Shown: one piece after another, positions 1,213 through 19,116 of the stretch
How the letters are laid out: each line of letters opens with the position of its first letter
How positions within the stretch are numbered: the first letter of the stretch is position 1
Source: Chthoniobacteraceae bacterium
GTDB lineage: Bacteria; Verrucomicrobiota; Verrucomicrobiia; Chthoniobacterales; Chthoniobacteraceae
DNA: 41,504 nucleotides
Assembly: GCA_031409655.1 (NCBI GenBank)
Contig: JANNXQ010000019.1
Coordinates: 1 to 41,504, forward strand
Direction of reading: 5' to 3'
Notes under the pieces: model-generated
What the model was told of the DNA's origin: nothing
The model's input: the letters and a program-made list of their open reading frames with translations, nothing else
Database searches by the model: none
Position numbers and translations under genes: made by a program

Positions 1213-1548
1213 AGAGGGGGAAGTGCCGAGTGTTCGTGTCGCAGCCATGAGGTCGCCGAAAGTTTTGTGGATCGTGTCAATCCCTCTGCCCTCCGCCCAG
1301 CGAAAACGCGCGCACGACGAGAGCGGCGCGTGCGAGTCCGAAGAGGTGGGCGAAACGGAGACGACTGCTCAAACGGGACAACGAGCGCTGGATCCAACTT
1401 CACATTTACGACGCGCCTCCGGGGTGCGAGACGTTTTTCGCATTGATCCGGGGGTTTCGCTCGTTCCTCGCTTCACCTGCAATTAGTCTCCAATGTCTCT
1501 TCGGGACGTTCTCCCGTGGACCATTCGTCGCAAACCAGCTTTCACAAA

Positions 1549-4256: not shown

Positions 4257-7200
4257 TTATTGCTCCCTGGCGCGAGCCAGAGCCGTGTCGTATTGGCGGG
4301 TGAGAAAATCGTAGAGGACCATTTCGTGGGCGCGCTGACCGGAGCGCAGCAGGCGGTTCGCGTGCATGTGGAGATAGCTCGGCGCGAGTTCCGCGATCGG
4401 GATGGCCAGCCGGCCGGCGGCCTCGCACGCTTTCAACTCCGCGATGATCGGGGCCAGCTTGGTTGAGCGGTGGCGGAGGATTTCAAAACCGGGCGCAAGG
4501 GCGTGGTCGGCATCGGAAGCTGATGAGAGCAGGGCTTCCAAGCTCTGGCGCTCCTTGCGGTAGCGCTCGCTGAGCTGGGCTTTGAGCTTGGTGTCCGCGC
4601 GGAACTCGCGGGCGAAAGCCGCGCGCACGCTGTCGAGCACGGCGAACTTCCCCGGCAAATCGAGCCCGAGGTCCGTGAGCAGGGCATCCATGCCGCGCAG
4701 CGCGAGGCGCCAGCGTTCGTCGAGTCCGGCATCGCCTGACTCCACCAGATCGAGGATTTCGAGGACGGCTTCGCTGTCGATCTGGAAGAGCTGCTCCGCG
4801 AGTAACGTGCCTTCGTCGCCGCCGTAACGCTCGACTTCCCGCTCGTAGGTATCGAACTGCACGCGCCAGAGCTGGCCACGGTGCAGGAGCGGATGCACGG
4901 CGCGTTCGACGGCGGGCAGCACTTCTCCGCGCAACCGCTCCGGGTCGCCGTGAAAGCGCACCCGCAGATGGTGTTCGGGATCGGCGTAGCGGATGAAAAA
5001 CCAACGATTCGCCGCGCCCGCGCCGAGCACCTCGGCGACCAGCGGATGGATCACCTCGCGCAGCACTTCGTCCGCAGTCGCGGTGCCGGTATAGAGCTTG
5101 GCGTAGAGCCATTCCGAGCCGGGCGGGAAAGTGCGCGGCGCCGGCGAGCGCGCGCTCCCGCGGCGGGCCGTGCCGGGAACGTGCGGATGGATCGCGTTGC
5201 CGGGCTCGGCGCTGGCGGGTGCGGTGCGAATGAATGGCACGACGAACTCATGGACGTAGCGGCCTTCGGGTCCGCAGGCAATGAGCAGATCCGGCGCGGG
5301 AAATACTTCGACCAGCGTGGCCTCGTCGCGTCCCTTCACGCGATCCACGAAGGTCTCGACGCAGAGGACGTTGTCGAGATCGAGCGGGAGATGATTGTCG
5401 AAATCGGTCAGCGCGACGTAACGCGGCAGCCGCCGCGCGGTGCGCCACACCTGCAAGGCGCGGAATCGTTCCGCGCCATGCTTCACGCCCAGCGAGTGGA
5501 GCTCATCTTTGGTCGCGTTCCATTGGGCGCGGGCGAGCACCACTTTCCCCGCCGAGACGCGGGGCAGAAACGGCGCACGCTGGAGGATGCCCCAGTCCCA
5601 GCCGAGCGAGGCGGTTCCTTGCATCTGCAGCGCGCACAGGAATCTGTAGGTCGGCAGACTATTCCACGCGTAATTGTGCGCGCTGGTCAGCCGCGGAATG
5701 ACTTCGCGGTCGAGACGCGCGGAGAAGAGCGCGAGACGTCCATCGCGCACGGCGAGGCGCAGATCGGTGATGGGAAGCTGCTGCTCCGGGGTGGCGCCGG
5801 AGTGGCCGAGGTAGGGAATTTCATGCGCGCGCAGCACCGGTCGCGCGAGGATATTGCCGAGCCGGCCTTCCGGCAGGTGGACGATCTCCGCAAACACCGC
5901 CTCGGGATGCAGCGCTTCCTCCGCGCGCAAGTAGCGCTCGACCTGGCGGTGCAGCTCCGGATCGGCGTGGCAGAAGCGACCGAGCAGCGCCGCGCCGGAG
6001 GGTCCGCGCACCTCGCCCAGGAGCACGCGAAAATCGCCGGTCACGAGCGCCGCCTCGGAAGCCGCGGCCACCGTCGCCATGACCGCAAAGGAATCCGGCA
6101 GCGCGGGCGATTCCTTTGCCGCCATCTCGTCCAGGTCCTTGCTGCCGAGCAGGATTTCCGAGCTGCTGTTTGCGAGCGCCTCGGCCAGTTTGCGCAGCAG
6201 CAGATTTTCGCGCGCGTCCCAGCGCGCAGTGCCGTCTTTGTCGCGGGGAAACGTCAGACCCTTGAGCAGCGGCGAGGTTTCACCGCCGCGCGCGACGGGA
6301 AAGCCGAGGCCCGTTTCGCCATCCAGCGCCTCGACCAGCGGGACGAGCCGGCCCTCATACCGCGTCGCGAAAGCCTCGCGAAAACGCGCGAGTTCATCGC
6401 TGGCCGGCGGGAGCGGACGGGCGAGCCGGTGCAGGAGTTCGACGCCGCGGTTGAGTTCGGCGAGGACCTGGCCGCCGAGGGTCAGCGTGGCGGCGGGCTT
6501 GACCATCTCCACCTGCACGAGCCGGGAGATTTCGACCTTCGCCGGCAAGTCCGCGAGCACCGCGGCCACCGCGCGGTAGCGCTCGGGCGGATGGCCCAGG
6601 CCCGCCGCATCCAGCGACTCAAGCGTGGCGTGGATCTGCTCCAGCGCGCGAGTCGCGGTGGCCAGCGCGGGATGCGGGGAAAACTGCGCGGTGAGCGCGT
6701 GGATCGGCTCCGGTCCCGTGACCGCGAGCGCGATGTCGGGCATCAGGATCTGGCTCTCGATCAGCCCGGCGACGTATTCCTCCGCTTCCGCCGAGGTGAT
6801 CTCTTTATCCACCAGCGCGGCCGCCAAATCGGCACAGGTGGCGCCGTCGCGGGCTCGCGTCAGCGTGGCTTCCAGAAGGTCGGACACCTCGACCGCGACG
6901 AGGTGATAGGAACGCTCTTTGCCTTCCATCTTCGACTCGGCGTAACGCATGCGGCCCGCGGCGCGATAGAGGCTGGAATTCGGCCGGTAGGTGAAGATCG
7001 GGCGCAGCCCCGGATCGGCAGCGAGCAGGCCGGTGAGCGCGGCGAGGTAGTCCATGTCCAGCCGCGTGTGACGCCGCCACTCGGCGCGGCTGGCGAGCGT
7101 GATTTTCGTCGCGGCACCGATCGTCCCGACCGAGCAGCCCGCACAGAGCCCGAAGGGCGTGGCCCGGCCGGCCATGCGTAGAAAGTAACGCACCAGCGCC

Positions 7201-7514
7201 TGCTCGATGCCGCGTCCGCGTTCACTTTCCGGCTCGCGTTCCCACAGCCCGAAGCTCGCCTCCAGATCGGGCGAGGCCACAAACAAGGCTTCGCGCACTT
7301 CCGCCCGCACCATGGCCGCATGCAGACGCGACCGGAGTCGGGAGCGATCCGCGGCGAGCGCTGGATCGAGCCGCTCGGCATCGTGCAACGCCGCGGGAGC
7401 TTCCAGTCCATCGCTCCACGCGAGCAGTTCATCGAAGGGCAACAGCGGGGTGCGCAGGGCGAAGAAATCCGCGGAAATGAATGCCGGGAGTTTCCGGCTT
7501 TTGGACGCGGCCAT
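4257..7514 (-). CDS. lanB: Class I lanthipeptide dehydratase LanB (glutamylation + elimination domains)
   Basis: LRTPLLP, RYFLRMAGRATPFG, GRFCH, PRLTSAHNY, PFLPRV; C-terminal FPPGSEWLYAKLY...WFFIRYADPEHHLRVRF...YEREVERYGG...SYLHMHANRL. ATG at 7514 lies just after the lanC stop (1085 aa). Confidence 0.95.
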   Translation of the reverse strand: MAASKSRKLPAFISADFFALRTPLLPFDELLAWSDGLEAPAALHDAERLDPALAADRSRLRSRLHAAMVRAEVREALFVASPDLEASFGLWEREPESERGRGIEQALVRYFLRMAGRATPFGLCAGCSVGTIGAATKITLASRAEWRRHTRLDMDYLAALTGLLAADPGLRPIFTYRPNSSLYRAAGRMRYAESKMEGKERSYHLVAVEVSDLLEATLTRARDGATCADLAAALVDKEITSAEAEEYVAGLIESQILMPDIALAVTGPEPIHALTAQFSPHPALATATRALEQIHATLESLDAAGLGHPPERYRAVAAVLADLPAKVEISRLVQVEMVKPAATLTLGGQVLAELNRGVELLHRLARPLPPASDELARFREAFATRYEGRLVPLVEALDGETGLGFPVARGGETSPLLKGLTFPRDKDGTARWDARENLLLRKLAEALANSSSEILLGSKDLDEMAAKESPALPDSFAVMATVAAASEAALVTGDFRVLLGEVRGPSGAALLGRFCHADPELHRQVERYLRAEEALHPEAVFAEIVHLPEGRLGNILARPVLRAHEIPYLGHSGATPEQQLPITDLRLAVRDGRLALFSARLDREVIPRLTSAHNYAWNSLPTYRFLCALQMQGTASLGWDWGILQRAPFLPRVSAGKVVLARAQWNATKDELHSLGVKHGAERFRALQVWRTARRLPRYVALTDFDNHLPLDLDNVLCVETFVDRVKGRDEATLVEVFPAPDLLIACGPEGRYVHEFVVPFIRTAPASAEPGNAIHPHVPGTARRGSARSPAPRTFPPGSEWLYAKLYTGTATADEVLREVIHPLVAEVLGAGAANRWFFIRYADPEHHLRVRFHGDPERLRGEVLPAVERAVHPLLHRGQLWRVQFDTYEREVERYGGDEGTLLAEQLFQIDSEAVLEILDLVESGDAGLDERWRLALRGMDALLTDLGLDLPGKFAVLDSVRAAFAREFRADTKLKAQLSERYRKERQSLEALLSSASDADHALAPGFEILRHRSTKLAPIIAELKACEAAGRLAIPIAELAPSYLHMHANRLLRSGQRAHEMVLYDFLTRQYDTALARAREQ

Positions 7515-7516
7515 GA

Positions 7517-8854
7517 TCACGCGATCTTCTCCGCGGGGATAGACGCGAGCAACATCCGATCCCACTCCGGCTCGCGTTCCGTGGTCGCCGCGAGGAGCGC
7601 GAGCGCCACGCCCGCCGCGCCTTCGAGGAGGCCCCGCTCCGCCACCCAGCGCACTTCGCGGGGCCGCTCGGGATCGGGCATCATCGCGGAGAAGCCGGCG
7701 ATGCTCTGGTCCGGTTGCCGCATCGCCAGAGCGCGCGCCAACCAGCCGCGCGCGGCAACCCCGAGCGTCTCGTCACCCGTGGCCTGGAAGAGGCGGTTGA
7801 AGAGATGGCCCACCCCGGCCGCGCCGTGGCAGAGGCCGCAGTCCACCACCCCGGATTGTTCCGCAGGACGAGCGGCGGCGCGGTGCGCGATGCGCAAGGC
7901 TTCGCGTTCCCAAGCCGGCTCCCGCGCACCACGGGCGGCCTGGAGCAGCGCCACCGCGACCCCGAGATCGCCGTAGCACCACGCCAGCCGCGCGGGCGTT
8001 GGCGAAATGCCCGGTCCGACCCAATAGGGAAAACTTTGCGCGCGATCATCGGGCTCCTGGGCGAGCAACCACGCCACCGCGCCGTCGAGAAGCGCGCGGG
8101 CTTTTTGGCGGGGACCGTCCAGTCCCTCATCGCCGCGCGCACCCACCTGACCGAGCAGCGCAATCACGCCCGGCACGCCGTGCGCCAATCCGACGTCGTA
8201 ATAACCCTCGGGATACTCTTCGCACTGCTCGGACGGGAGCCGCTCGGGCGCGGTGCGCCAGGTGATTCCCCCAGCGGTGCGTTCCGCCAATCCATCCAGA
8301 CCATCCACCACCAACGCGAGGCCCGTGACGCCCGCTGGCTGCGGCAGGCGTTCCAGCGCATAGCATCCGAAGCCCACCAGGCCACTGACGAGGTCATAGT
8401 CCCCACGCCAGGGCGATTGGAGGAGGAGTTCGCGCAGCGCGGCGTCCACGGCCGCGTTGGGATCGTCTTCGCCGGCCTCGAAAAGCCGCCCCTCCAGATG
8501 CGCCACGGCCCAGGCCGTGCCAGTGAAGCCGCCAAAAAGCCCGGGCGTGCTCCGCGCAGCGCCGACCGCCTCGACCGCCTCATTCAGAAAATCCACGGCG
8601 CTTTCCTCCGCCGCGTCCACCAGCCCGGATTCGGCGAGGCTGGCGTAAAACACGGCGAGCCCCGCGCATCCACCTGCGAGCGAGCCAGCGGCCCTTTCCT
8701 CCGGAAGCAAGACCGCCCGCGGCTGCCGCAGCGCCTGGGCGATCGCCAGGATCACCTCGCGGGCCTGCGCTCCCACCTCGCCATCGAGGATCGGCACCCA
8801 CGATCCGCCCGGATTTTTCGGAGCGCTTGAAGGCGTGGGCTGAATGTCTCTCAT
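7517..8854 (-). CDS. lanC: Lanthionine cyclase LanC
   Basis: YDLVSG, GLAHGVPG, AWCYGDLG and GLCHGAAG; the Zn-ligand Cys/Cys/His residues are present. Confidence 0.95.
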   Translation of the reverse strand: MRDIQPTPSSAPKNPGGSWVPILDGEVGAQAREVILAIAQALRQPRAVLLPEERAAGSLAGGCAGLAVFYASLAESGLVDAAEESAVDFLNEAVEAVGAARSTPGLFGGFTGTAWAVAHLEGRLFEAGEDDPNAAVDAALRELLLQSPWRGDYDLVSGLVGFGCYALERLPQPAGVTGLALVVDGLDGLAERTAGGITWRTAPERLPSEQCEEYPEGYYDVGLAHGVPGVIALLGQVGARGDEGLDGPRQKARALLDGAVAWLLAQEPDDRAQSFPYWVGPGISPTPARLAWCYGDLGVAVALLQAARGAREPAWEREALRIAHRAAARPAEQSGVVDCGLCHGAAGVGHLFNRLFQATGDETLGVAARGWLARALAMRQPDQSIAGFSAMMPDPERPREVRWVAERGLLEGAAGVALALLAATTEREPEWDRMLLASIPAEKIA

Positions 8855-8893: not shown

Positions 8894-9754
8894 CTACGCC
8901 AGCAGCTCGGCCCGGCCCTCGTTCAGCCGCGCCAGGTCGATGAGATACTGCTCCTCCTCCGCGTCGAGCGGCCCTTCCTCCAGAGCGGCGGCCAGGCCTG
9001 CGACCTCCTCCGGCGTCGTGGGTGAGCAGAGCAGCCCGTCGAGTTCGGGCCGCGTGAGGGCAAAGCGGTGATAGTCCGTCACCCGCGGTTGCCAGTGATC
9101 GTCGTTCAGGCCCAGCTTCGCAAAGCGCTCCGGCGCCACGAAGCCGTGGGTGTTGGTGAAGTTGTAGAGCAAGGTTGCGCGCCGTTTTTCGAGGTGGGGG
9201 AAGACATCGTGCCGCGCGCCGGGGTGCGCCGGGTTGTAGCGGAGAAAGGCGAGATCGACCAGGCCGTGATTGACCGCGAGCAGCGCCGCCTCACGGTCGT
9301 GAAAAGACGCGCCAATGGCCCGGACTCCGGCGAAACCGCGCCGACGATGCTCCTGATACACCGGCAGCCGGGTCAGAAACTCGTGCGCATACGCCCCGCC
9401 GGCCACCGCCACGTCCACCGTTTCCAGCCCCGGCACCGCCTCCAAGACTTCCTCCAATCCCATCCAGCAAAACTCGGGCTGCGTCGGATAAATCGAGACC
9501 GCCACCACGATCTGCCTCCGAACCTCGGGGTCACGCGCCAGCAACAGCTCCAAGCCGCGGCGCGACGCTTCATAGTTCGGCCAGTGCAGATCAGCACTGA
9601 GGAAGAAAAAGTTGATCCCGGCATCAAACGCCGCCGCAATGGCCTCCGGAGACCGGACATATCCAAGGCAGAACGGACTAACGCTCAGCCTGGCTCTCCC
9701 CAGGCTGAGACGATCCCTGAATCTGGGCAGTGCGGGGCGCGAGGGTATCGTCAG
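8894..9754 (-). CDS. Aldo/keto-reductase-like oxidoreductase in the RiPP operon (start uncertain)
   Basis: LGRARLSVSPFCLG, AAFDAGINFF and GVRAIGASFH...LRYN resemble AKR TIM-barrel motifs. There is no ATG between the last precursor stop and these motifs, so CTG at 9754 is assumed. Confidence 0.65.
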   Translation of the reverse strand: MTIPSRPALPRFRDRLSLGRARLSVSPFCLGYVRSPEAIAAAFDAGINFFFLSADLHWPNYEASRRGLELLLARDPEVRRQIVVAVSIYPTQPEFCWMGLEEVLEAVPGLETVDVAVAGGAYAHEFLTRLPVYQEHRRRGFAGVRAIGASFHDREAALLAVNHGLVDLAFLRYNPAHPGARHDVFPHLEKRRATLLYNFTNTHGFVAPERFAKLGLNDDHWQPRVTDYHRFALTRPELDGLLCSPTTPEEVAGLAAALEEGPLDAEEEQYLIDLARLNEGRAELLA

Positions 9755-9771: not shown

Positions 9772-9969
9772 TTAGGTGACGATGCTGCTGGCTACGTTGC
9801 TGCCTTTTGACACCACCGCGCCCCCAGAACTCCGCCCGCCTCGAATCGCCCCGGCATCCCGATCCGACAGGTTCTCGACCGTTTCCTTGGTGAGCTTCAG
9901 GCTCTTGATCTTCACTTTGCCTTTGCTCGACGGTGCGGCAGCTTCTTCGTGGATCTTTTTCGTTTTCAT
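9772..9969 (-). CDS. lanA: RiPP precursor A8; core RSSGGAVVSKGSNVASSIVT (Cys-free)
   Basis: 45-aa leader with LKLTKETVENL...IRGG. Confidence 0.85.
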   Translation of the reverse strand: MKTKKIHEEAAAPSSKGKVKIKSLKLTKETVENLSDRDAGAIRGGRSSGGAVVSKGSNVASSIVT

Positions 9970-10166
9970 GTTGGGCCACTCTGACCTGATATGCTACCAC
10001 TGATAGACTTAGTTTTCACCGATCCTGACACCCCGCCCCTTACGGCACCGGCGGCCGTATCCGACAGGTTCTCGATGGTTTCCTTGGTGAGCTTCAGGCT
10101 CTTAATCTTCACTTTGCCTTTCGGCGTTGGTGCGGCGGCTTCTTCGTGGGTCTTTTTGGATCTCAT
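9966..10166 (-). CDS. lanA: RiPP precursor A7; core VSGSVKTKSISGSISGQSGPT (Cys-free)
   Basis: Same 45-aa leader ending VRGG; ATGA overlap with A8. Confidence 0.85.
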   Translation of the reverse strand: MRSKKTHEEAAAPTPKGKVKIKSLKLTKETIENLSDTAAGAVRGGVSGSVKTKSISGSISGQSGPT

Positions 10167-10230
10167 GATGGGTTCTTTTTTTGAGTTGCGTGTTGGTTTT
10201 TCAGAGCGGGCGGCAGCCGATGCATTCCTT

Positions 10231-10407
10231 TCAGGTGTTTCCAGTTCTTCGTGAACCTAACGAGCCAGACCCTCCGCCCCGGACCGACCCCGCATCCTGA
10301 TCCGACAGGTTCCCGACGGTTTCCTTGCTGAGCTTCAGGCTCTTGATCTTCACCTTGCCTTGAGGAGACGGCTTGGTGGCTTCTTGTTTGGTCGTTTTCG
10401 TTTTCAT
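10231..10407 (-). CDS. lanA: RiPP precursor A6 (58 aa, missing from the ORF track); core GSGSLGSRRTGNT (Cys-free)
   Basis: Manual translation: MKTKTTKQEATKPSPQGKVKIKSLKLSKETVGNLSDQDAGSVRGG-GSGSLGSRRTGNT*. Confidence 0.85.
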   Translation of the reverse strand: MKTKTTKQEATKPSPQGKVKIKSLKLSKETVGNLSDQDAGSVRGGGSGSLGSRRTGNT

Positions 10408-10747: not shown

Positions 10748-10942
10748 TTAGATTGATCTTGGCGGACAACTACACCCCGAGCCCGCAGCCCTACCCGTCG
10801 CTGCCGCCCCACCCCTGACAGCGTCGGCAGCGGTATCCGACAGGTTCTCGATGGTTTCCTTATGAAGTTTCAGGCTCTTGATCTTCACCTTGCCTTTCGG
10901 CGTCGGCGTGGCGGCTTCTTCGTGGGTCTTTTTGGATCTCAT
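10748..10942 (-). CDS. lanA: Lanthipeptide precursor A4; core AAATGRAAGSGCSCPPRSI
   Basis: Same leader ending VRGG; core has 2 Cys plus Ser/Thr. Confidence 0.88.
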   Translation of the reverse strand: MRSKKTHEEAATPTPKGKVKIKSLKLHKETIENLSDTAADAVRGGAAATGRAAGSGCSCPPRSI

Positions 10943-11006: not shown

Positions 11007-11192
11007 TCAGGTGTTTCCGGTTTTGATACTGCCGCCTCCGCATCTGTCCGAGTAGCCTCCGCCCTTCACAGCCTTGGCGTCGGCATCAGAGAGATTCCCG
11101 ACGGTCTCCTTGGTGAGCTTCAGGCTCTTGATCTGCACCTTGCCCTTCGGCGTCGGCGTGGCGGCTTCTTCGTGGGTCTTTTTCGTTTTCAT
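11007..11192 (-). CDS. lanA: Lanthipeptide precursor A3; core GYSDRCGGGSIKTGNT
   Basis: ATG at 11192; same leader ending VKGG. Confidence 0.88.
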   Translation of the reverse strand: MKTKKTHEEAATPTPKGKVQIKSLKLTKETVGNLSDADAKAVKGGGYSDRCGGGSIKTGNT

Positions 11193-11211: not shown

Positions 11212-11640
11212 TTAGTGGGCGGACAACGGACCAAGGCGGGCGGCGGATTGTTTCCGCTCGATCCGCGAATCCATCCAGAACCGGATCACGGCCTTCAGCC
11301 CGGTGTGGGGCGCGAGCCAGAGTGCGAATCGCTCGCCGTGCCGCAGATACAGCGCATGGAACCAAGCCGGAGAATCTTCCGTCAGCCAGTCGCGGAAGAG
11401 CATCCAACGTGGGTTCTCTTCCCCGTAAACGGCGCGAGCGATCCAGCATGCCACTATGACGGTGCCACCCGCCGCTGAATTGTCCCTCGGACATTTGGTA
11501 GTAATTCCACCTTTCACGAGCCCCGCATCGTGGTCAGAGAGATCCGCGATCGTTTCCTTTTGGAGCTTCAGATTCTTGATCTTCACCTTGCCTTTCGGCG
11601 TCGGCGTGGCGGCTTCTTCGTGGGTCTTTTTGGTTTTCAT
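11212..11640 (-). CDS. lanA: Precursor A2: leader + 19-aa core ITTKCPRDNSAAGGTVIVA + 78-aa CWIARAVYG domain
   Basis: ATG at 11640, 142 aa; the C-terminal domain is 73/78 identical to that of A1. Confidence 0.85.
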   Translation of the reverse strand: MKTKKTHEEAATPTPKGKVKIKNLKLQKETIADLSDHDAGLVKGGITTKCPRDNSAAGGTVIVACWIARAVYGEENPRWMLFRDWLTEDSPAWFHALYLRHGERFALWLAPHTGLKAVIRFWMDSRIERKQSAARLGPLSAH

Positions 11641-11659
11641 GGTGTGATTTGTTTCTTGG

Positions 11660-12088
11660 TCAATGAGCGGACAACGGAGCAAGGCGGGCGGTGGATTGTT
11701 TCCGCTCGATCCGCGAATCCATCCAGAACCGGATCGCGGCCTTCAGCCCGGTGTGCGGCGCGAGCCAGAGCGCGAACCGCTCGCCATGCCGCAGATACAG
11801 CGCATGGAACCAAGCCGGAGAATCTTCCATCAGCCAGTCGCGGAAGAGCATCCACCGCGGGTTCTCTTCCCCGTAAACGGCGCGCGCGACCCAGCATTGC
11901 GCGACAGCGGTTCCTCCTCCTCCGGCATTTCCACCATTATTCCTAGAACCAGCTCCCCCTTTTACACCCCCGGCATCCGAGTCCGACAGGTTCTCGATGG
12001 TTTCCTTGCTGAGTTTCAGATTCTTGATCTTCACCTTGCCCTTCGGCGTCGGCGTGGCGGCTTCTTCGTGGGTTTTTTTGGTCTTCAT
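11660..12088 (-). CDS. lanA: Precursor A1: leader + 19-aa core AGSRNNGGNAGGGGTAVAQ + 78-aa CWVARAVYG domain
   Basis: 142 aa; LKLSKETIENL...VKGG leader followed by core and an aromatic-rich C-terminal domain. Confidence 0.85.
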   Translation of the reverse strand: MKTKKTHEEAATPTPKGKVKIKNLKLSKETIENLSDSDAGGVKGGAGSRNNGGNAGGGGTAVAQCWVARAVYGEENPRWMLFRDWLMEDSPAWFHALYLRHGERFALWLAPHTGLKAAIRFWMDSRIERKQSTARLAPLSAH

Positions 12089-12297
12089 GGGGTGCTGGTT
12101 TCTTCAGTTCCGGGTTTTTTTGGTTTGGTCTGTTTTTTCCCTGTCCGGCCTCCGGTGCTGCCAAACAGGGTGCGGCCTCCGCCGGTGACATCCCGCGTGG
12201 GAATCAGGTCGTCGAGACGAATGACCCGCGTCTTTACGGCCCGCTTCTTCGGCGGATCGGGTTCGTTTTTTGGCGGCTCTTTTTCTCCGGGGCTCAC
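12085..12297 (-). CDS. Small basic protein with an internal double-glycine motif (IRLDDLIPTRDVTGG); possible second precursor type
   Basis: GTG at 12297, 70 aa; its TGA overlaps the ATG of A1 (ATGA coupling). Confidence 0.5.
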   Translation of the reverse strand: MSPGEKEPPKNEPDPPKKRAVKTRVIRLDDLIPTRDVTGGGRTLFGSTGGRTGKKQTKPKKPGTEETSTP

Positions 12298-12310
12298 GAA
12301 CCGATACCTT

Positions 12311-12326
12311 ATCAGGACGCGTGCCG
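12311..12326 (-). promoter_or_regulatory. Candidate sigma54 (-24/-12) promoter for the precursor-AKR-lanC-lanB operon
   Basis: CGGCACG-CGTC-CTGAT versus consensus TGGCACG-N4-TTGCW; the -12 box is imperfect (GA); an activator gene is adjacent. Confidence 0.4.
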
Positions 12327-12364
12327 ACCCGCCGGGATCGCTGCCTCCAGCCCGAGGACACGCC

Positions 12365-12380
12365 GGGACAGAAAATTGCA
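12365..12380 (+). promoter_or_regulatory. Candidate sigma54 promoter for the activator/export arm
   Basis: GGGACAG-AAAA-TTGCA gives GG-N10-GC spacing with a perfect -12 box and an imperfect -24 box. Confidence 0.35.
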
Positions 12381-12610
12381 ACCCGCTGGTGACGAGACGA
12401 TTACGCACGTGGGGAAAGGCCGGAAAAAAGTGCGGACGAGGCAGTGGTGGACTTTCCGCGGGGAAATGGGTGGCTCCGGCGTGGAGCCAGATGGCCCTGT
12501 ATCGATCCGGCCGCGGCCCCATGGTGAGCCCGCGCCGAGGTGGAAACGCTCGCCCTCGCCGGAAGATCGGCCTACAAACGCGTTTCACTCGGAAGTCGGC
12601 TGCCACGCCC

Positions 12611-13612
12611 ATGATTTCGCCCGCGCTTTTCCAACTCAAAGTCGAGGAACTGACCTCGGCCAATGTCGCCATGCAGCGCTGCCTGAAGCTGGCCGCGCTG
12701 GCCGCGCAGAGCGACATCCCGGTGCTCATCCTCGGCCCCACTGGCACGGGCAAGACCCTGCTCGCCCAAGCCATCCATAATTCCTCCGCGCGCGCCGCCG
12801 GGCCGTTCGTCTCCTTCAACGCCTCTGCGATGAGCGACACGCTGCTCGAGAGCGAACTCTTCGGCCACGAGCGCGGGGCCTTCACCGGGGCGCGGCAGAT
12901 GCACAAGGGCCGCTTCGAGATGGCGCACGCCGGCACCCTCTTCCTCGACGAAATCGCGGACATGAGCCCGCTCGCCCAGGCGAAGATCCTCCGGGCTGTG
13001 GAATACGGCGAATTTGAGCGGGTGGGGGGCGAAGGGATGCATCGCTCGGATGCGCGCATCATCTCCGCGACGAATTGCTCGCTGCGCGAACGCATCCGCG
13101 CGCGGAGATTCCGCGAAGACCTCTACCACCGGCTCGATGGCCTGGTGCTGCTCATCCCGCCGCTGCGGGAGCGGGTGGAGGATCTGCCGTCGCTCATCGC
13201 GCTGGAACTCAAGGCCGCCGCCGTGGAAGCCGGGAAACGGATCACTTCCATCCATCCTGCCGCGATGGATCGGCTGCTCGGCTACGAATGGCCCGGCAAT
13301 CTCCGCGAGCTGCATCACACGATGCGGAGCGTGGCGCTTTTCTGCGAAGGCAAGGTGGTCCAGCCTGAGCACGTTGGCTTTCAGCGAGACCTCGCGCCCG
13401 AATCCCCTCCCCGCGCAGAGCCGCTAACGGATGCACCCAGCGCGGACCGTGCGGGAACCGCCGCCGAGGATCAGACGCTGGCCCGCGCCACGAGAGAACA
13501 TGTACAGCGAGTCCACGAATCCACCGGCCGGAATCAGCGCCGGACCGCCCGACTCCTCGGCATTTCCCGAGGGAAGCTCGTCCGCCATCTCGCGCAGATG
13601 GAGGGAAAATAG
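12611..13612 (+). CDS. Sigma54-dependent transcriptional activator (AAA+ and Fis-type HTH, no sensory domain)
   Basis: GPTGTGKT, ESELFGHERGAFTGA, LFLDEI, FREDLYHRL, WPGNLREL, TARLLGISR; ATG at 12611. Confidence 0.92.
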   Translation: MISPALFQLKVEELTSANVAMQRCLKLAALAAQSDIPVLILGPTGTGKTLLAQAIHNSSARAAGPFVSFNASAMSDTLLESELFGHERGAFTGARQMHKGRFEMAHAGTLFLDEIADMSPLAQAKILRAVEYGEFERVGGEGMHRSDARIISATNCSLRERIRARRFREDLYHRLDGLVLLIPPLRERVEDLPSLIALELKAAAVEAGKRITSIHPAAMDRLLGYEWPGNLRELHHTMRSVALFCEGKVVQPEHVGFQRDLAPESPPRAEPLTDAPSADRAGTAAEDQTLARATREHVQRVHESTGRNQRRTARLLGISRGKLVRHLAQMEGK

Positions 13613-13740: not shown

Positions 13741-14802
13741 GTGATCCCGCCCCCGGAGCGAAACCGAACTGTCTTCATTGCTGCGGGTCGTGAGATTACG
13801 GTCTGGGATGTCGTCGATGCCGCCGGCTTCCGGGGTGAGTTGGCTGGGGCGTGGAATCAACTGGCGATCCTCCTGGGAGCCGGGGAGCGGGCGGCTGGAC
13901 TGGAAGTGGATGAAGAAGTGGCGCAAGCCACGTCGGAAAAGTTCCGCTCCGAGCGCGGCTTGATCACGGCAGAGGAAACGGAAAGCTGGCTCGATCAGCG
14001 CGGGCTGACCACGGATGATTTCAGCGACTACTTCGTCCGGCACTACTGGGACGAACTCTTCCGCGGGCAGATCACGGCAAGCGGCGGCGACTATCTCTCG
14101 GCTGCGGAGGAACTCCGCGATTTGCTCCGGGTCGAGCTGTGGTTTTCAGGGGAATTTGCGCGGCTGGCGGGGCGGCTGAGCTGGCGCTACGCCGCCCTGG
14201 ATGGCGCCCCCAGCGGGATCACGCCCGAACTGATCGAGGCCGAAGGGGAACGATTCCGGGCGCGTGCCGGCCTCGAGGCGGGAGCGGTCGCGGCCTGGCT
14301 CTACCAGATGGGTCGTGACCAGCGCTGGCTCGAGGAGATGCTCGCGCTCGAGGCCGCGTATCACCGCGAATGCGCAGCGGCGACGAACCTGAAAGAGCAG
14401 GAAAGGATGCTGCGGGAACATCGGATCTCCTGGACGCGGGTGGAGCTGGAGACGGTCGATCTGGATTCCCCGGCGGCCGCTCGCGAGGCGCTGCTCTGCG
14501 CGCGGGAAGACGAGACCTCCTTGCTGGAAATCGCGACCGAGGGGCGCTACCCGCATCGCCGCGCCACTTTGCTGATCGAGGAATTTGCGCCAGAGCGCCA
14601 GCCAGCGCTGCTCTGCGGGGCGCCGGGCGAAGTCCTCGAGCCGTGGGCGCGCGCCGAGGGCTTTCAGCTCTGCCGGATCCTGCGCAAGATCGAGCCGGCG
14701 CTGGCCGATCCCGTGATCCACGAGCGCGTCGAACGGCTGATCCTCGAACGCCATTTTTCCGAGCTGACGACGCAGCACATTCGCTGGTCGTTCGGCCTGT
14801 GA
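13741..14802 (+). CDS. PpiC/SurA-like foldase-type accessory protein of the peptide export system
   Basis: Acidic helical protein (FRSERGLITAEETESWL..., C-terminal GEVLEPWARAEGFQLCRILRKIEP). It lies just upstream of the C39 ABC exporter, a position where PpiC-like proteins are commonly found. Confidence 0.55.
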   Translation: MIPPPERNRTVFIAAGREITVWDVVDAAGFRGELAGAWNQLAILLGAGERAAGLEVDEEVAQATSEKFRSERGLITAEETESWLDQRGLTTDDFSDYFVRHYWDELFRGQITASGGDYLSAAEELRDLLRVELWFSGEFARLAGRLSWRYAALDGAPSGITPELIEAEGERFRARAGLEAGAVAAWLYQMGRDQRWLEEMLALEAAYHRECAAATNLKEQERMLREHRISWTRVELETVDLDSPAAAREALLCAREDETSLLEIATEGRYPHRRATLLIEEFAPERQPALLCGAPGEVLEPWARAEGFQLCRILRKIEPALADPVIHERVERLILERHFSELTTQHIRWSFGL

Positions 14803-14808
14803 CCGCCC

Positions 14809-17800
14809 ATGCCCGAGTCGCTCGATGAACTCCTGCAACGCTCGGCGCTCTTCCGCTCGCTGCCGGTCGAGCACGCGGAAAAGTTGCGCCCGCTGCTCCG
14901 CGAGGAGCACTTCGAGTTTGGCGACGTGATCGTGAAGCAAGGCGACGCGGCGGATGCGCTCTACCTGCTCACCTCGGGCCGGGCGCGCGTGGTGAAGGTG
15001 ACGGAGAGCGGGGAGGAAATCGCCCTGACGACGCTGCGTCCCGGCGACGAGTTTGGCGAGCTGGCGCTGATCTCCGGCGGGACCCGGAATGCCACGGTGC
15101 GCTGCAGCACCGCAGTGGACGCACTCCGGCTCGACGTGAAGGATTTTCTGCCCCTGCTCGCGCTCCATCCCGAACTCCGGCGCTCGATCGAAACGACGGC
15201 GCGGACCCGGACCTTGCACGGGTTCCTCTACGAGTTCAGCAATTTCGGCCGATTGTCCGCACGCGTCCTGCATGCCCTCGTCGAAAAGCTTTCGCCGGTC
15301 GATTTCAAAAAGGGAGACCTCATCCTCCGCGAGGGCGATCCGCCCGGGGCGATGTTCATCGTGCAGACCGGTCGGGTCCGGGTCTTTGCCAGTCCCAATG
15401 GGCGCGCGCTCAACCTCGCCTTCTATCGTGGAGGCGATTTTTTCGGCGAGCTTTCGCTCCTGAATGACACGCCGCGCGCGGCGTCCGCCGAAGCCATGAC
15501 GGACAGCCACTTGCTCGCCTTGCAGCCGGGCGATGTGCGGGAGCTGGAGGAGCGCTTTCCGGAGTTCCGCAGCTTCCTCGAAGAGCGCCGGACGCAATAC
15601 CGGGCGGGCACCGAGGCGCGGGTGCCGCTGGACTTTGCGGAGGAAGCGCTGCCCGCGGAAGCGCGCCCGAACGACAAGGTCGCCATCGACGGCGAGAATG
15701 GCGCGATGCCCGAAAGCGACGAGCCTTTTGCCGATGAACGCGGGCTCTTTCGCAAGCGCCGTGGCCGCATCCGGAAGATCCCGCACATCCGGCAGATCGA
15801 CGAGATGGATTGCGGGGCGGCGGCGCTCGGGATGATCTGCCGGCACTTCGGGCGTGCGGTGAGCCTCGCGCACATCCGGCAGCTCTGTCACACGGCGCGC
15901 GATGGCACGAGCCTCAAGGGCATCTGCCGCGCCGCCAGCGAACTCGGTCTGGCGGCGCGCGCGCTGAAAGTTTCCCCGCGCAATCTGCCGCAGATGCCGC
16001 TCCCGGCAATCATCCACTGGGATGGCAACCACTGGATGGTGCTCTACGATGTCGGCAAAACGGAGGTGCGCGTGAGCGATCCGGCATTTGGCGCGCGGCG
16101 CATCCCGCGGGCCGAATTTGCCGAGAAGTGGACCGGCTACGCGGCGCTCTTCGACTTCACGGAGGAATTCAAAAACGCCCCGGAAGGAGGCTCGACCTTT
16201 AGTTGGCTGGGGCCATTTCTACGCCGGCACGCCGCCACTCTGCGCCAGGCGCTGCTCCTCGCGGGAGTCGTGACTTTCCTCCAACTGCTCTTCCCCATCT
16301 TCACGCAACTGGTGGTGGATAAAGTGGTGATCGGCGATGACCTCGGGCTGCTCACCACGATCCTGATCGCGATGGGGGTCGCGCTCGTCTTCATGCAGGT
16401 GGCCAACCTCGCGCAGCAATATCTGCTGAGCTTTGCCGCGGTGCGCATCGACGCGGCGATCCTCGACTTCCTGACGCGGAAGATGCTGGCGCTGCCGATG
16501 TCCTACTTCAGCACCCGGCGCACGGGCGACATCCAGCGCCGGCTCGATGGCGCGCGGCAGATCCGGCTCTTCGCGGTCCAGCATGGGATCGGCGGCGGGC
16601 TCGCGCTGGTGACGCTCGTCGGCGCAGTGGTCTTGATGGCATTCTACAATCTCGCGCTCGCGGGCACCTTCCTGGCCACCGCGCCGCTCTACGTGGGCAT
16701 GATGTTTTTTTCGGTCAAAGTGCTCCGGCCACTCTTCGCCGACATCGAGGAAAGCCAGGGCAAATACGCTTCACACCAGATCGACGCGATCAAGGGCATC
16801 GAAGCGGTCAAGGCGGCGTCCGCGGAGCTGAATTTTCGCGACGCGATGCTCCACGAATTCCTCGGTGTCTCGCGAAAAATGTTCCGCGCGAATTTCATCA
16901 TCATGTCCTACGACAGCGTGCTCCAGTCCATCGGGTTGCTCTCGACCGCACTCTTCCTGTGGGTCGGGGCCAACAAGGTGATCACCGGGCAGATCACGGT
17001 GGGCGCATTCGTCGCCTTCAGTTCGCTCACTGCCCTGGCCTACGCCGCGATCCTGCGGACGCTCGGCATCTGGGACGAATGGCAGCAGGTGTCCGTCCTG
17101 CTGAACCGGCTCAACGACGTCTTTGAGGCAGAGCCCGAGCAGGGCCGTGACCGCTCGCGCCTCACGCCGGTGCCCTTGCTCGAGGGGCGGATCGAATTGC
17201 GCAAGGTCGGCTTCAAATACGGCGGCCCGGAAGCGCCGGATATTTTGCGCGGGCTCGACCTCGCCTTCGGGCCCGGCCAGACCGTCGCCATCGTGGGTCG
17301 CAGCGGCAGCGGCAAGACCACGCTGATCAAGCTCCTGGCCGGCCTCATCGAACCAACCGCCGGCACCATCCTCGTCGATCATACCGATCTCAAGACGCTC
17401 AACTATCGGGAGGTGCGGCGGCAGATCGGGATGGTCTTGCAGGACAACCACATGTTCAACGAGACCATCCTGCGCAACATCGCCTTTGGAGATCCGGAGC
17501 CGGATTTCGACCGCATCCTCTGGTGCGCCCAAACCGCGAACGCCCACGACTTCATCATGCGCCTGCCGCTGGGTTACGAGTCGCGGATCGGTGAATCGGG
17601 GCTCGGTTTGTCCGGCGGACAAAAGCAACGCATCGCGATCGCCCGCGCCCTTTATCTCGACCCGCCCATCCTGATTTTCGACGAAGCGACCAGCGCCCTC
17701 GACACCGAGTCGGAACGCGCCATCCAGGGAAATCTGGGCCGCATGACCGCAGGCCGGACCTGCATCGTCATCGCCCACCGCCTGAGCACCATTCGCGACG

Positions 17801-17916
17801 CGGACAAGATCGTCGTTTTGGAAAAAGGCGAAATCGCCGAAGTCGGGACGCACGACGAACTCATGGCCCGGCGCGGACTCTACTTCCATCTCTCCAGCCA
17901 GCAGCTCGGCATCTGA
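14809..17916 (+). CDS. lanT: Peptidase-containing ABC transporter: 2x cNMP-binding + C39 peptidase + TMD + NBD
   Basis: FGELALI...RNATV and FGELSLL...RAASA (cNMP); QIDEMDCGAAAL and HWMVLY...DP (C39 Cys/His/Asp); GRSGSGKT, LSGGQKQR, DEATSALD. Confidence 0.93.
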   Translation: MPESLDELLQRSALFRSLPVEHAEKLRPLLREEHFEFGDVIVKQGDAADALYLLTSGRARVVKVTESGEEIALTTLRPGDEFGELALISGGTRNATVRCSTAVDALRLDVKDFLPLLALHPELRRSIETTARTRTLHGFLYEFSNFGRLSARVLHALVEKLSPVDFKKGDLILREGDPPGAMFIVQTGRVRVFASPNGRALNLAFYRGGDFFGELSLLNDTPRAASAEAMTDSHLLALQPGDVRELEERFPEFRSFLEERRTQYRAGTEARVPLDFAEEALPAEARPNDKVAIDGENGAMPESDEPFADERGLFRKRRGRIRKIPHIRQIDEMDCGAAALGMICRHFGRAVSLAHIRQLCHTARDGTSLKGICRAASELGLAARALKVSPRNLPQMPLPAIIHWDGNHWMVLYDVGKTEVRVSDPAFGARRIPRAEFAEKWTGYAALFDFTEEFKNAPEGGSTFSWLGPFLRRHAATLRQALLLAGVVTFLQLLFPIFTQLVVDKVVIGDDLGLLTTILIAMGVALVFMQVANLAQQYLLSFAAVRIDAAILDFLTRKMLALPMSYFSTRRTGDIQRRLDGARQIRLFAVQHGIGGGLALVTLVGAVVLMAFYNLALAGTFLATAPLYVGMMFFSVKVLRPLFADIEESQGKYASHQIDAIKGIEAVKAASAELNFRDAMLHEFLGVSRKMFRANFIIMSYDSVLQSIGLLSTALFLWVGANKVITGQITVGAFVAFSSLTALAYAAILRTLGIWDEWQQVSVLLNRLNDVFEAEPEQGRDRSRLTPVPLLEGRIELRKVGFKYGGPEAPDILRGLDLAFGPGQTVAIVGRSGSGKTTLIKLLAGLIEPTAGTILVDHTDLKTLNYREVRRQIGMVLQDNHMFNETILRNIAFGDPEPDFDRILWCAQTANAHDFIMRLPLGYESRIGESGLGLSGGQKQRIAIARALYLDPPILIFDEATSALDTESERAIQGNLGRMTAGRTCIVIAHRLSTIRDADKIVVLEKGEIAEVGTHDELMARRGLYFHLSSQQLGI

Positions 17917-17925
17917 TCGCGAGCC

Positions 17926-19116
17926 ATGAATCCCACCCCGCAGCCCAAGCCCAGAGGCTCGCTCGACCGCGAATCGGAGATGCTCCCGCAGGATCCGCCG
18001 CACTCCGTCGTCCGCTGGATCGGATGGCTGATCCTCGCGCTTTTCTCTGCCGTGCTGGCCGCGTCGATCGTCGTGCGTCTGCCGGAGACGGTGCAGTGTC
18101 CCTTTGTGCTCGTGCCCAAAGACGGCGCCGACCCTATCAAGACGCCTCTGATGGTCGTGATCAGCGAAGTGCGCGTGACCGAGGCGCAGGAGGTCGCCGC
18201 GGGCGACGAGCTTTTCGTGCTGCGCTCGGATGAGATTCGCAACCGGCACACGCAGCTCCGGACCGTGACCGAAGACCTGCGCGCCAAGACCGAAAGCATC
18301 GCGAAGATGGAGGTCTCGCACGCCGCTCAGCTCAACATCAAGCACTCGGAGATTTCCCAGATCGAACGCGAGTTGCTCTTCCGGAAGAAGCACGCCGACA
18401 CCAGCCGCGACCTGGTCGCGCGCCTGAGCAGGCTCGCCGCCGGGGGCGGGATTTCCCAGATCGAACTCGCGCGCCTCGAACTCGACCTCGCCGGGTCGGA
18501 GAAAGACCTGAGCATTACCGAGAAGAACCTCGAAGCGGCGCATCTCGAACGCGAGCGGCTCGAAACCGAGCGGGCGCGCCAGCGCAGCGACGAGCAGGCC
18601 ACCGCGCAGAATCTCAAGTCGCGGATCGACGCGCTCCAACGCGATCTCGAAAACTCCCGGCAGGACTTCCTCTCGATCCGCGCGCCCTACGCTGCAGTCG
18701 TCCTCTCCGTCGCCCGGCGCACTCCGGGCGACGTCGTGCAGGCCGGCGGAGAGCTTTGCCAGCTCGCTCGCATCGACGCCATCCCACACGCCCGCCTGAC
18801 CCTCGGCGAGCGCGGCTTGTCGCGGCTCACGGAAGGCCAGCGCGTGCGCCTTTTTTTCGACGCCTTCCCCTACCAGCGCTACGGGAGCATCACCGGCAAC
18901 CTTGATTGGATCAGCCCCGCGGCTGTTTCGGCGTCCGGGGGACCGCAGTTCGTCGCGCGGACTTCGCTCGGGCAGAATTTCATCCGCGTCAAAGGCGAAC
19001 CCCGGCCCTTGCGAGTCGGGATGAAGGGCGAAGCGCGCATCGTCGTGGGCAGCCGCGCGCTCATCGAATACGCCTTCGAGCCTGCCCGCCAACTGCGCGA
19101 AAACCTGCGCCCATGA
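17926..19116 (+). CDS. HlyD-family type I secretion membrane fusion protein
   Basis: N-terminal TM helix, long coiled coil, FDAFPYQRYGSITG, LRVGMKGEARI. Confidence 0.9.
   Translation: MNPTPQPKPRGSLDRESEMLPQDPPHSVVRWIGWLILALFSAVLAASIVVRLPETVQCPFVLVPKDGADPIKTPLMVVISEVRVTEAQEVAAGDELFVLRSDEIRNRHTQLRTVTEDLRAKTESIAKMEVSHAAQLNIKHSEISQIERELLFRKKHADTSRDLVARLSRLAAGGGISQIELARLELDLAGSEKDLSITEKNLEAAHLERERLETERARQRSDEQATAQNLKSRIDALQRDLENSRQDFLSIRAPYAAVVLSVARRTPGDVVQAGGELCQLARIDAIPHARLTLGERGLSRLTEGQRVRLFFDAFPYQRYGSITGNLDWISPAAVSASGGPQFVARTSLGQNFIRVKGEPRPLRVGMKGEARIVVGSRALIEYAFEPARQLRENLRP

Follow-up and report, generated by a model that had tools for sequence, protein, structure and literature searches.

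The two genes at the head of a precursor array in the window (the whole analysed stretch of 41,504 nucleotides, contig JANNXQ010000019.1 of a Chthoniobacteraceae bacterium) encode real fusion precursors, A1 and A2, in which a leader and a variable core continue into a Cys-initiated C-terminal domain of 78 residues that is predicted to fold. The usual picture of a lanthipeptide precursor is a leader plus a core. Both the type of the cluster and the superfamily of the domain are catalogued, and a folded module of the CFI superfamily placed after a lanthipeptide core, a design that recurs with several leader types, appears to be a new combination. The original prediction knew of no described lanthipeptide precursor with such a domain, and none was found in a search of article full texts. 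The array consists of eight small precursor genes in tandem on the minus strand (12088-9772), all with one common leader, and genes for LanB, LanC, PCAT and HlyD adjoin it. The features of the locus are listed below.

12088-11660, minus strand: A1 precursor, 142 aa, leader(45)-core(19)-domain(78); leader 12088-11954, core 11953-11897 (AGSRNNGGNAGGGGTAVAQ), CW/CFI-type domain 11896-11663, stop 11662-11660
11640-11212, minus strand: A2 precursor, 142 aa, leader(45)-core(19)-domain(78); leader 11640-11506, core 11505-11449 (ITTKCPRDNSAAGGTVIVA), domain 11448-11215, stop 11214-11212
11007-11192, minus strand: A3 precursor, 61 aa, same leader, core YSDRCGGGSIKTGNT, without the domain
10748-10942, minus strand: A4 precursor, 64 aa, without the domain; NF038153 score 23.8 bits
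10423-10599, minus strand: A5 precursor, 58 aa, without the domain
10231-10407, minus strand: A6 precursor, 58 aa, Cys-free core
9966-10166, minus strand: A7 precursor, 66 aa, Cys-free core
9772-9969, minus strand: A8 precursor, 65 aa, Cys-free core; 4-nt overlap of its start with the A7 stop
8894-9700, minus strand: divergent aldo/keto-reductase-like oxidoreductase between A8 and LanC; start codon uncertain
7517-8854, minus strand: LanC cyclase, 445 aa; PF05147 at 7.1e-33
4257-7565, minus strand: full-length LanB dehydratase, 1102 aa; PF04738 5e-165, PF14028 2.5e-74, TIGR03891 3.5e-69
12611-13612, plus strand: sigma-54-dependent activator, divergent from the precursor operon; PF00158 at 1.2e-60
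13741-14802, plus strand: 353-aa protein, weakly like the TIGR04500 PpiC-related peptide-maturation family
14809-17916, plus strand: PCAT exporter with two cNMP-binding domains, C39 peptidase and ABC transporter
17926-19116, plus strand: HlyD-family periplasmic adaptor; PF13437, TIGR01843 9.8e-35

Re-examination of the sequence returned the same leader-core-domain layout and coordinates of A1 and A2 as originally assigned, with the leader at residues 1-45, the core at 46-64 and the domain at 65-142. The two leaders differ at 5 of 45 residues, the cores at 15 of 19 (4 shared), and the domains at 5 of 78 (V67I, M87T, A118V, T133A, and A137G); the recomputed counts for core and domain, as well as the GGT-x4-C at the junction of both precursors, matched the earlier values. 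Codons changed in the domain were synonymous-only in 9 cases and non-synonymous in 5, and the corresponding numbers for the core were 2 and 15. Such a distribution is in keeping with a domain under purifying selection and with a core that has been replaced or diversified. The sole Cys of A1 is Cys65, the first residue of the domain, and the absence of any Cys outside the domain of this precursor, claimed previously, is therefore true. The A1 core is Gly/Asn-rich with 2 Ser/Thr and 0 Cys, and resembles the low-complexity linkers found before the module in other proteins; the A2 core contains 4 Ser/Thr and 1 Cys. Four runs of a single study (a freshwater sediment metagenome, possibly the source sample) provided Logan contigs that spanned leader, core and domain of A1 and A2 with 0 differences, covering positions 11351-11603 in A2 and 11799-12061 and 11706-12071 in A1. 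Both junctions were bridged without a stop or an indel, so that a stop after the core, which had been considered as a sign against the fusion, is not present in these data.

The common leader has the consensus MK(T/S)KKTHEEAA.P.PKGKVKIK.LKL.KET...LSD....(V/I)(K/R)GG, and in A1 its motif reads L23-K-L25-S-K27-ETIEN-L33 ... K43-G-G45, i.e., LxLxKx5L ending with Gly-Gly. The profile NF038153 (lant_leader_L1a) matched all eight precursors (E≤0.0067), with scores of 19.2 bits for A1 and 20.8 bits for A2; only A4 cleared the cut-off of 22 bits. The other six precursors, A3-A8, are 58-66 aa long and end after a short core. According to Walker et al. (2020, PMC7268733), class I LanAs of Bacteroidetes have an LxLxKx5L leader, a GG site, and a C39 protease; A1 and A2 resemble these pinensin-related precursors (NF038153) in the leader motif, the GG site, the full-length LanB, LanC, and the C39 PCAT. 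Judged by these profile matches, A1 and A2 head a predicted eight-precursor class I lanthipeptide operon of a known kind. However, the known Bacteroidetes class I precursors end after the core, whereas A1 and A2 continue into the predicted folded domain of 78 aa, and the only Cys of A1 sits in the domain instead of the core.

The fusion recurs in other data sets and is not unique to this genome. A word-indexed protein search with A1 returned 24 proteins, among which P0003-P0015 had the same LxLxKx5L...GG leader type followed by a variable segment of 10-21 aa and then by the CW domain, and an exhaustive search added P0026 with the identical layout; overall, the fusion was found in at least 14 proteins besides A1 and A2. 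Three of these (P0010, P0012, and P0013) were incomplete at the C-terminus, and P0005 is a natural fusion with Arg at the Cys position. P0003 and P0005 both came from 984-bp contigs, and P0009 and P0011 both had a longest contig of 113,026 bp; these shared contig sizes suggest that each is a tandem pair like A1 and A2. The fused cores resemble the unfused cores of A3-A8 in their Ser/Thr/Gly/Cys content, with a Cys within the core in 7 of the 15 L1a-type fusions. In 9 of these 15 fusions, Ser/Thr occurred at position -5 from the Cys as compared to 0.21 overall in these cores, a count to be read with the facts that the 15 sequences are mutually related and that 10 positions were inspected. The proposed role of the domain Cys in a Thr-x4-Cys ring thereby gained some indirect support. 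A metagenome contig scan with A1 gave 3 loci, none of them with the leader, and the L1a leader was absent from all 22 domain loci detected in the contigs of 185,579 species-representative genomes. In a FastTree reconstruction from 249 unique 66-aa domains the L1a fusions were not monophyletic; the alignment was too short to resolve their branching.

The domain itself is far more widespread than the fusion. A phmmer search with its 78 residues against 1.84 billion representatives (clusters at 50% identity) yielded 1055 protein clusters at E≤0.001 and 600 at E≤1e-10. Among the 150 matches listed (93-1000 aa), the motif started 63-99 residues before the C-terminus; P0025 contained a second copy near the N-terminus. 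At least 595 stretches of IMG/VR encode the domain (595 of the 600 pattern matches listed), as compared with only the 22 loci in the species-representative genomes. The distance from the Cys to the stop had a median of 66 residues in 80 viral loci, and the residue before the Cys was variable (L 19, F 17, K 11, A 6, G 6, and others, of 81). When 72 distinct viral carrier ORFs were compared with PHROGs, five matched phrog_4287, one phrog_598 (both 'DNA ejection') and one phrog_6121 (virion structural protein), and 65 had no match. In three viral loci the domain gene followed the tail-fibre genes and preceded two large virion proteins, which we take to be the position of a podovirus internal-virion or ejection protein. 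The sole example from a cultured phage was gp25 of Puniceispirillum phage HMO-2011. Judged by these annotations, the domain is mainly found at the C-terminus of phage proteins, namely those for DNA ejection and those of the virion.

Cellular carriers were diverse. In Opitutaceae, the module followed an Asn/Ser linker behind a complete FliD (FliD_N, FliD_C); in Alphaproteobacteria it was found on FecR-domain proteins, and in Planctomycetota on VWA/TPR proteins of about 1600 aa, one of which had an internal and a terminal copy. Small carriers consisted of a TAT or Sec signal, a linker, and the module, and P0046, P0028, and P0084 were stand-alone forms with only signal, linker, and domain. Further small proteins included six members, all of one cluster, with a Nif11 leader and an eight-residue Cys/Trp-rich segment (CxWCxWx) before the module, tandem 'YxKPxL...ILSITKP' peptides in a Pseudomonadota metagenome-assembled genome, and tandem 'MKTNELPV..ETVPP' peptides in the window's own order (Chthoniobacterales). 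The small module peptides carry three kinds of leader. In P0037, a GG leader was followed by a pure Pro/Lys linker with no modifiable residue. No consistent shared partner enzyme was seen near the alphaproteobacterial small proteins L010, L012, and L016, where ORF calling was crude and most ORFs had no Pfam match. The carriers are always proteins that leave the cytoplasm, be it via Sec, TAT or PCAT, through the flagellar channel, or upon ejection from a phage. The leading Cys was present in 169 of the 170 family proteins covering the position, whatever the context. The idea of a dedicated lanthipeptide follower domain, implicit in the original prediction, is not supported for a generic and mostly phage-borne module with this degree of Cys conservation.

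An extra Cys within 12 residues upstream of the domain was found in 13 of 57 small family proteins vs. 2 of 118 large ones; six of the 13 belong to the single Nif11 cluster. Together with Ser/Thr at position -5, these residues suggest, as a possibility read from residue positions, that the small forms are cross-linked to their leading Cys. Ser/Thr at -5 could also be a helix N-cap, since a short helix was predicted at residues 61-64.

The resemblance to the CFI-box-CTERM domain, noticed earlier from the motif, proved correct at the superfamily level, as the profile comparison covered both families over their full length: hhalign of 36 diverse CW domains against 12 canonical CFI-box-CTERM sequences gave 97.2% probability (E 4e-11) over 63 columns. 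The canonical members were obtained by a family search of 300 phylum genomes, in which 9 of 301 genomes exceeded the cut-off and 12 members were aligned. The homology is nevertheless distant. The profile NF041770 matched A1 with 13.7 bits (E 0.04) and A2 with 15.9 bits (E 0.0083), spanning profile positions 1-66 of 69, as well as 43 of 65 family members at E≤0.1 (best E 8.6e-5). By the curated threshold of 40 bits, A1 and A2 are not CFI-box-CTERM members. On the profile evidence, we assign the domain to the CFI-box-CTERM superfamily, within which it belongs to a divergent branch, 'CWVAR'.

Both groups are Cys-initiated, about 65-70 aa in length and helical, and occupy the C-terminus of exported proteins, behind linkers that are Gly-rich or otherwise of low complexity. 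They share the motif C-[FW]-[IV]-A-x-A-x-Y-G ... FR(D) ... Y ... P, and in A1 and A2 the version CW[VI]ARAVYG begins at residue 65 and the domain runs to the C-terminus. The CW branch differs in its own near-invariant motif, CWVAR[AE]VYG..NPRW..FR.W..P.W..LY..G, in being mostly phage-borne, and in having no hydrophobic anchor, which was present in one of the five canonical CFI-box-CTERM tails inspected (L119). A full-text search of the literature found no publication on the CFI-box-CTERM domain; the family is catalogued in NCBIfam as NF041770.

AlphaFold2 modeling with a 65-row alignment predicted a disordered leader and core (pLDDT <50) and four helices within residues 65-142 (66-72, 78-88, 92-109, and 113-140; pLDDT 88-91), preceded by the short helix mentioned above. 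Cys65 is placed immediately before the first residue of helix 1. A thiol just ahead of a helix start has a lowered pKa, and Cys65 is therefore likely a reactive thiol in the predicted model. The modeled fold has no convincing resemblance in the PDB: Foldseek gave no match at E≤0.001, the best Z of VIA-align over 48,161 chains was 4.2, and a search of the A2 profile against PDB sequences returned nothing at E≤1. A BFVD search retrieved two family members only, the best score in the ESM Atlas was 0.85, an uninformative match to unnamed clusters, and searches of Pfam and PHROGs with A1 and A2 gave no match. Homo-dimer prediction with two copies of residues 61-142 scored 0.00 against a mark of 0.42 ('no answer'), which speaks neither for nor against a dimer.

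The CW family has a median pI of 10.2, a net charge of +6, about 8% Trp, and 18% aromatic residues. There is no transmembrane stretch in the family, and within the A1 domain the Kyte-Doolittle mean over 19 residues peaks at 0.76; anchoring through a transmembrane segment, one form of the membrane attachment suggested for the domain, is thus unsupported. A sorting signal of the PEP-CTERM/MYXO-CTERM type was rejected on the same absence of a transmembrane helix from the A1 domain. We consider the module autonomous, basic, Trp-rich, and, because its carriers always leave the cytoplasm, extracytoplasmic; it probably binds an anionic envelope surface. The existence of stand-alone exported forms consisting of signal, linker, and domain indicates that the module has a function of its own, beyond that of a processing tag.

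Several known systems share parts of this arrangement. The bottromycin follower and the C-terminal recognition sequence of cyanobactins are short, unstructured, pathway-specific elements C-terminal to the core. Like these, the domain of A1 and A2 is a conserved sequence behind a variable core, but it is an autonomous domain, predicted to fold, that occurs in over 1000 protein clusters with no relation to each other. Hint or intein-like domains are all-beta, start with a Cys after a variable passenger, and are optional on secreted and phage proteins. In common with them, the module is an optional add-on and begins with a Cys where the variable N-terminal passenger ends; it differs in its four predicted helices. 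A Hint domain was rejected because the predicted fold is all-helical. For microcins smaller than 10 kDa, export through PCAT-type type I secretion systems is established (PMC10231218), and A1 and A2 are similar to class II microcins such as MccV, as presented there, in their N-terminal GG signal, in their predicted export by a PCAT with HlyD, and in a predicted product size near 10 kDa. Class II microcins are unmodified and unrelated in sequence, whereas the present locus encodes a LanB/LanC pair and six ordinary precursors with the common leader.

The best joint explanation, which we favor tentatively and rate somewhat below an even chance, is that the PCAT exports core plus module as one product, a LanBC-tailored tail on an envelope-binding module, with Cys65 as a staple. 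LanB, LanC, and PCAT would recognize A1 and A2 via the leader common to A3-A8, LanB would dehydrate Ser/Thr of the core, and the C39 domain of the PCAT would cut after Gly45. The product exported by PCAT-HlyD would have about 97 residues; the computed values are 10.9 and 11.2 kDa with a pI of 9.6-10. The module would stay in the product as a carrier on the anionic envelope surface, presenting a short modified N-terminal peptide. Cys65 may be kept for the module's own purpose and could, with Dhb60, form a probable Thr-x4-Cys methyllanthionine stapling the core to the module. Two natural sequences do not conform to a stapled core, P0037 with its linker devoid of modifiable residues and P0005 with Arg in place of the Cys.

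The fusion could also be viewed as hitch-hiking cargo, secreted CW-domain proteins that borrowed a GG leader for PCAT export, with the core as a linker and no meaningful action of LanB and LanC. Such cargo is possible, though we lean clearly against it. It would agree with the position of the module behind Gly/Asn/Pro low-complexity linkers in unrelated proteins, the A1 core being of that kind, with the fusion of other GG leaders to the module (Nif11; P0037 with its Pro-rich linker), and with the established PCAT-type export of small proteins as microcins (PMC10231218). However, the fused cores are similar to those of A3-A8 in Ser/Thr/Gly/Cys content, 7 of 15 have a Cys, Ser/Thr is enriched at -5, and the leader is the same one that the cluster's LanB must recognize on A3-A8. 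An assembly chimera, or a decaying gene across core and domain, is highly improbable, and no positive support was found for it. The source genome was assembled from metagenome data, comprises 306 contigs and has a contamination of 5.26%. An artefact is opposed by the Logan contigs of four runs bridging both junctions with 0 differences, the purifying-selection signature of two paralogues, and the homologous fusions (at least 14) in other data sets.

We regard it as unlikely that the module is a transient pro-domain cut at X/Cys65 by itself or by a protease, releasing a lanthipeptide of about 19 residues, and that on phage, FliD, and other proteins it is an optional cap likewise removed. The all-helical predicted fold argues against it, as to our knowledge every Cys-led autoprocessing fold is different; proteins made up of signal, linker, and module would leave no product upon cleavage, the planctomycete protein with an internal copy has more than 600 residues after it, and P0005 keeps the domain without the Cys. 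On the other hand, removal would be consistent with the Cys being invariant (169 of 170 proteins) at the exact domain boundary while the residue before it is free to vary, as at autoprocessing junctions. One of the BFVD family members is named as having an intramolecular chaperone auto-processing domain. The C-terminus of FliD is normally part of the cap, and the module is appended to a complete FliD with both FliD_N and FliD_C.

If the preferred reading, a retained module with a tailored tail, is right, the fusion would mean that LanB/LanC chemistry reaches beyond peptides to a small protein, and it would provide a natural scaffold for variable cross-linked loops. A more specific and rather doubtful proposal is that A1 and A2 are 'lanthiproteins', PCAT-secreted effectors of protein size in which a hypervariable peptide is tailored and, via the reactive Cys of the module, stapled onto an envelope-binding domain that phage DNA-ejection proteins also have. 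They might then serve as targeted bacteriocins, or as decoys occupying the envelope site of incoming phage ejection proteins, and an unrecognized class would be made up of the small module proteins, whether their leader is L1a, Nif11, or another, in which a conserved C-terminal scaffold displays a variable cross-linked N-terminal loop. The 142-residue A1 and A2, encoded next to defined enzymes, offer an experimental handle on the widespread CFI-box/CWVAR superfamily, and their expression should be easy. Knowledge of the module's role would also bear on podovirus-type ejection proteins and on the module-bearing FliD proteins.

The lanthipeptide cluster looks accessory. The precursor motif had no second occurrence elsewhere in the 6.85-Mb source genome, and there was no leader match outside this genome in a sample of 400 genomes of the order (71 of the same family, one, G702, of the same genus) or in a sample of 400 genomes of the phylum; the domain was found in just one other genome of the phylum sample. 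No sigma-54 promoter (TGGCAC-N5-TTGCW, ≤2 mismatches) was detected near A1, the window-wide number of matches being 10 against 16 expected by chance, and a scan for sigma-70 promoters and terminators gave nothing useful. The sigma-54-dependent activator probably starts at ATG 12611, which gives a protein of about 333 aa without a receiver domain, but this start is uncertain. The 353-aa protein scored 49.5 bits with TIGR04500 (cut-off 180) and had no Pfam match.

The PCAT exporter was identified by PF00027 (two stretches), PF03412 (1.5e-37), PF00664, PF00005, and TIGR03796 (1.2e-162). LanC contains the motifs GLAHG, WCYG, and CHG, which by analogy with NisC we take to comprise the zinc and acid-base residues. 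The oxidoreductase encoded at 8894-9700 had no match in Pfam and NCBIfam profile searches; it is conserved, with 529 homologues at E≤1e-5. Some of these homologues carry the JGI names aryl-alcohol dehydrogenase-like or aldo/keto reductase-like, and PF00248 is present in one of them.

The CW module, the Cys-led C-terminal domain of the lanthipeptide precursors A1 and A2, was found on both large cellular proteins and small precursor-like proteins at loci (L-numbers) in other genomes and contigs.

L001, 8291-10240, and likewise L003, L004 and L006-L009 (Opitutaceae): FliD with a C-terminal CW module
L014, 1821-6536 (Planctomycete): VWA/TPR protein of 1572 aa with two CW modules
L012, 9200-10640: four small CW-module proteins in tandem
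L135, 1400-1874: two small CW-module proteins in tandem

The flagellar cap proteins at the Opitutaceae loci, about 650-685 aa in total length, were complete (FliD_N and FliD_C), with the module at the C-terminus behind an Asn/Ser linker. In the VWA/TPR protein, one module was internal, with a linker rich in Gly and Met before it and over 600 residues after it, and the second was terminal. A phage protein of 492 aa in the BFVD structure database (A0A6J5QZ65) matched the module over 70 columns with 40% identity and an rmsd of 1.9; its record name states that it contains an intramolecular chaperone auto-processing domain.

Members of the L012 and L135 arrays had a variable short leader-like N-terminus followed by the conserved module, and their tandem layout resembled that of RiPP precursor arrays. 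No recognisable maturase was seen near either array. In six further proteins (P0035 and P0173-P0177), a Nif11 leader ending in GG was followed by an eight-residue segment rich in Cys and Trp (CxWCxWx) and then by the CW module. The cysteines of this segment, together with the module's own Cys, formed a C-x2-C-x3-C cluster.

The following features were distinguished in the window itself.

9772-10407, minus strand: precursors A6, A7 and A8, cores Ser/Thr/Gly-rich, with zero cysteine
8894-9700, minus strand: aldo/keto-reductase-like gene separating A8, the final precursor gene, from lanC; start codon uncertain
14809-15800, plus strand: N-terminal part of the PCAT exporter, two cyclic-nucleotide-binding domains before the C39 peptidase
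1-1248, minus strand: ORF with TIR_2 then AAA_16/NACHT domain matches, running past the window end

Three of the eight precursors in the operon thus had cysteine-free cores, in which ring formation by LanC is impossible. The gene at 8894-9700 had no match in Pfam or NCBIfam; 529 homologues were found, some labelled aldo/keto-reductase-like, and its product could be a tailoring reductase of the cluster.

The two N-terminal domains of the PCAT suggest cNMP gating of export. At 12089-12660, the precursor operon faces away from a sigma-54 activator gene, the product of which appears to have no receiver domain; the region upstream of A1 showed no -24/-12 consensus. The TIR_2 and AAA_16/NACHT ORF, 3 kb from lanB, has an NLR/STAND-like architecture, which is typical for anti-phage defence genes.
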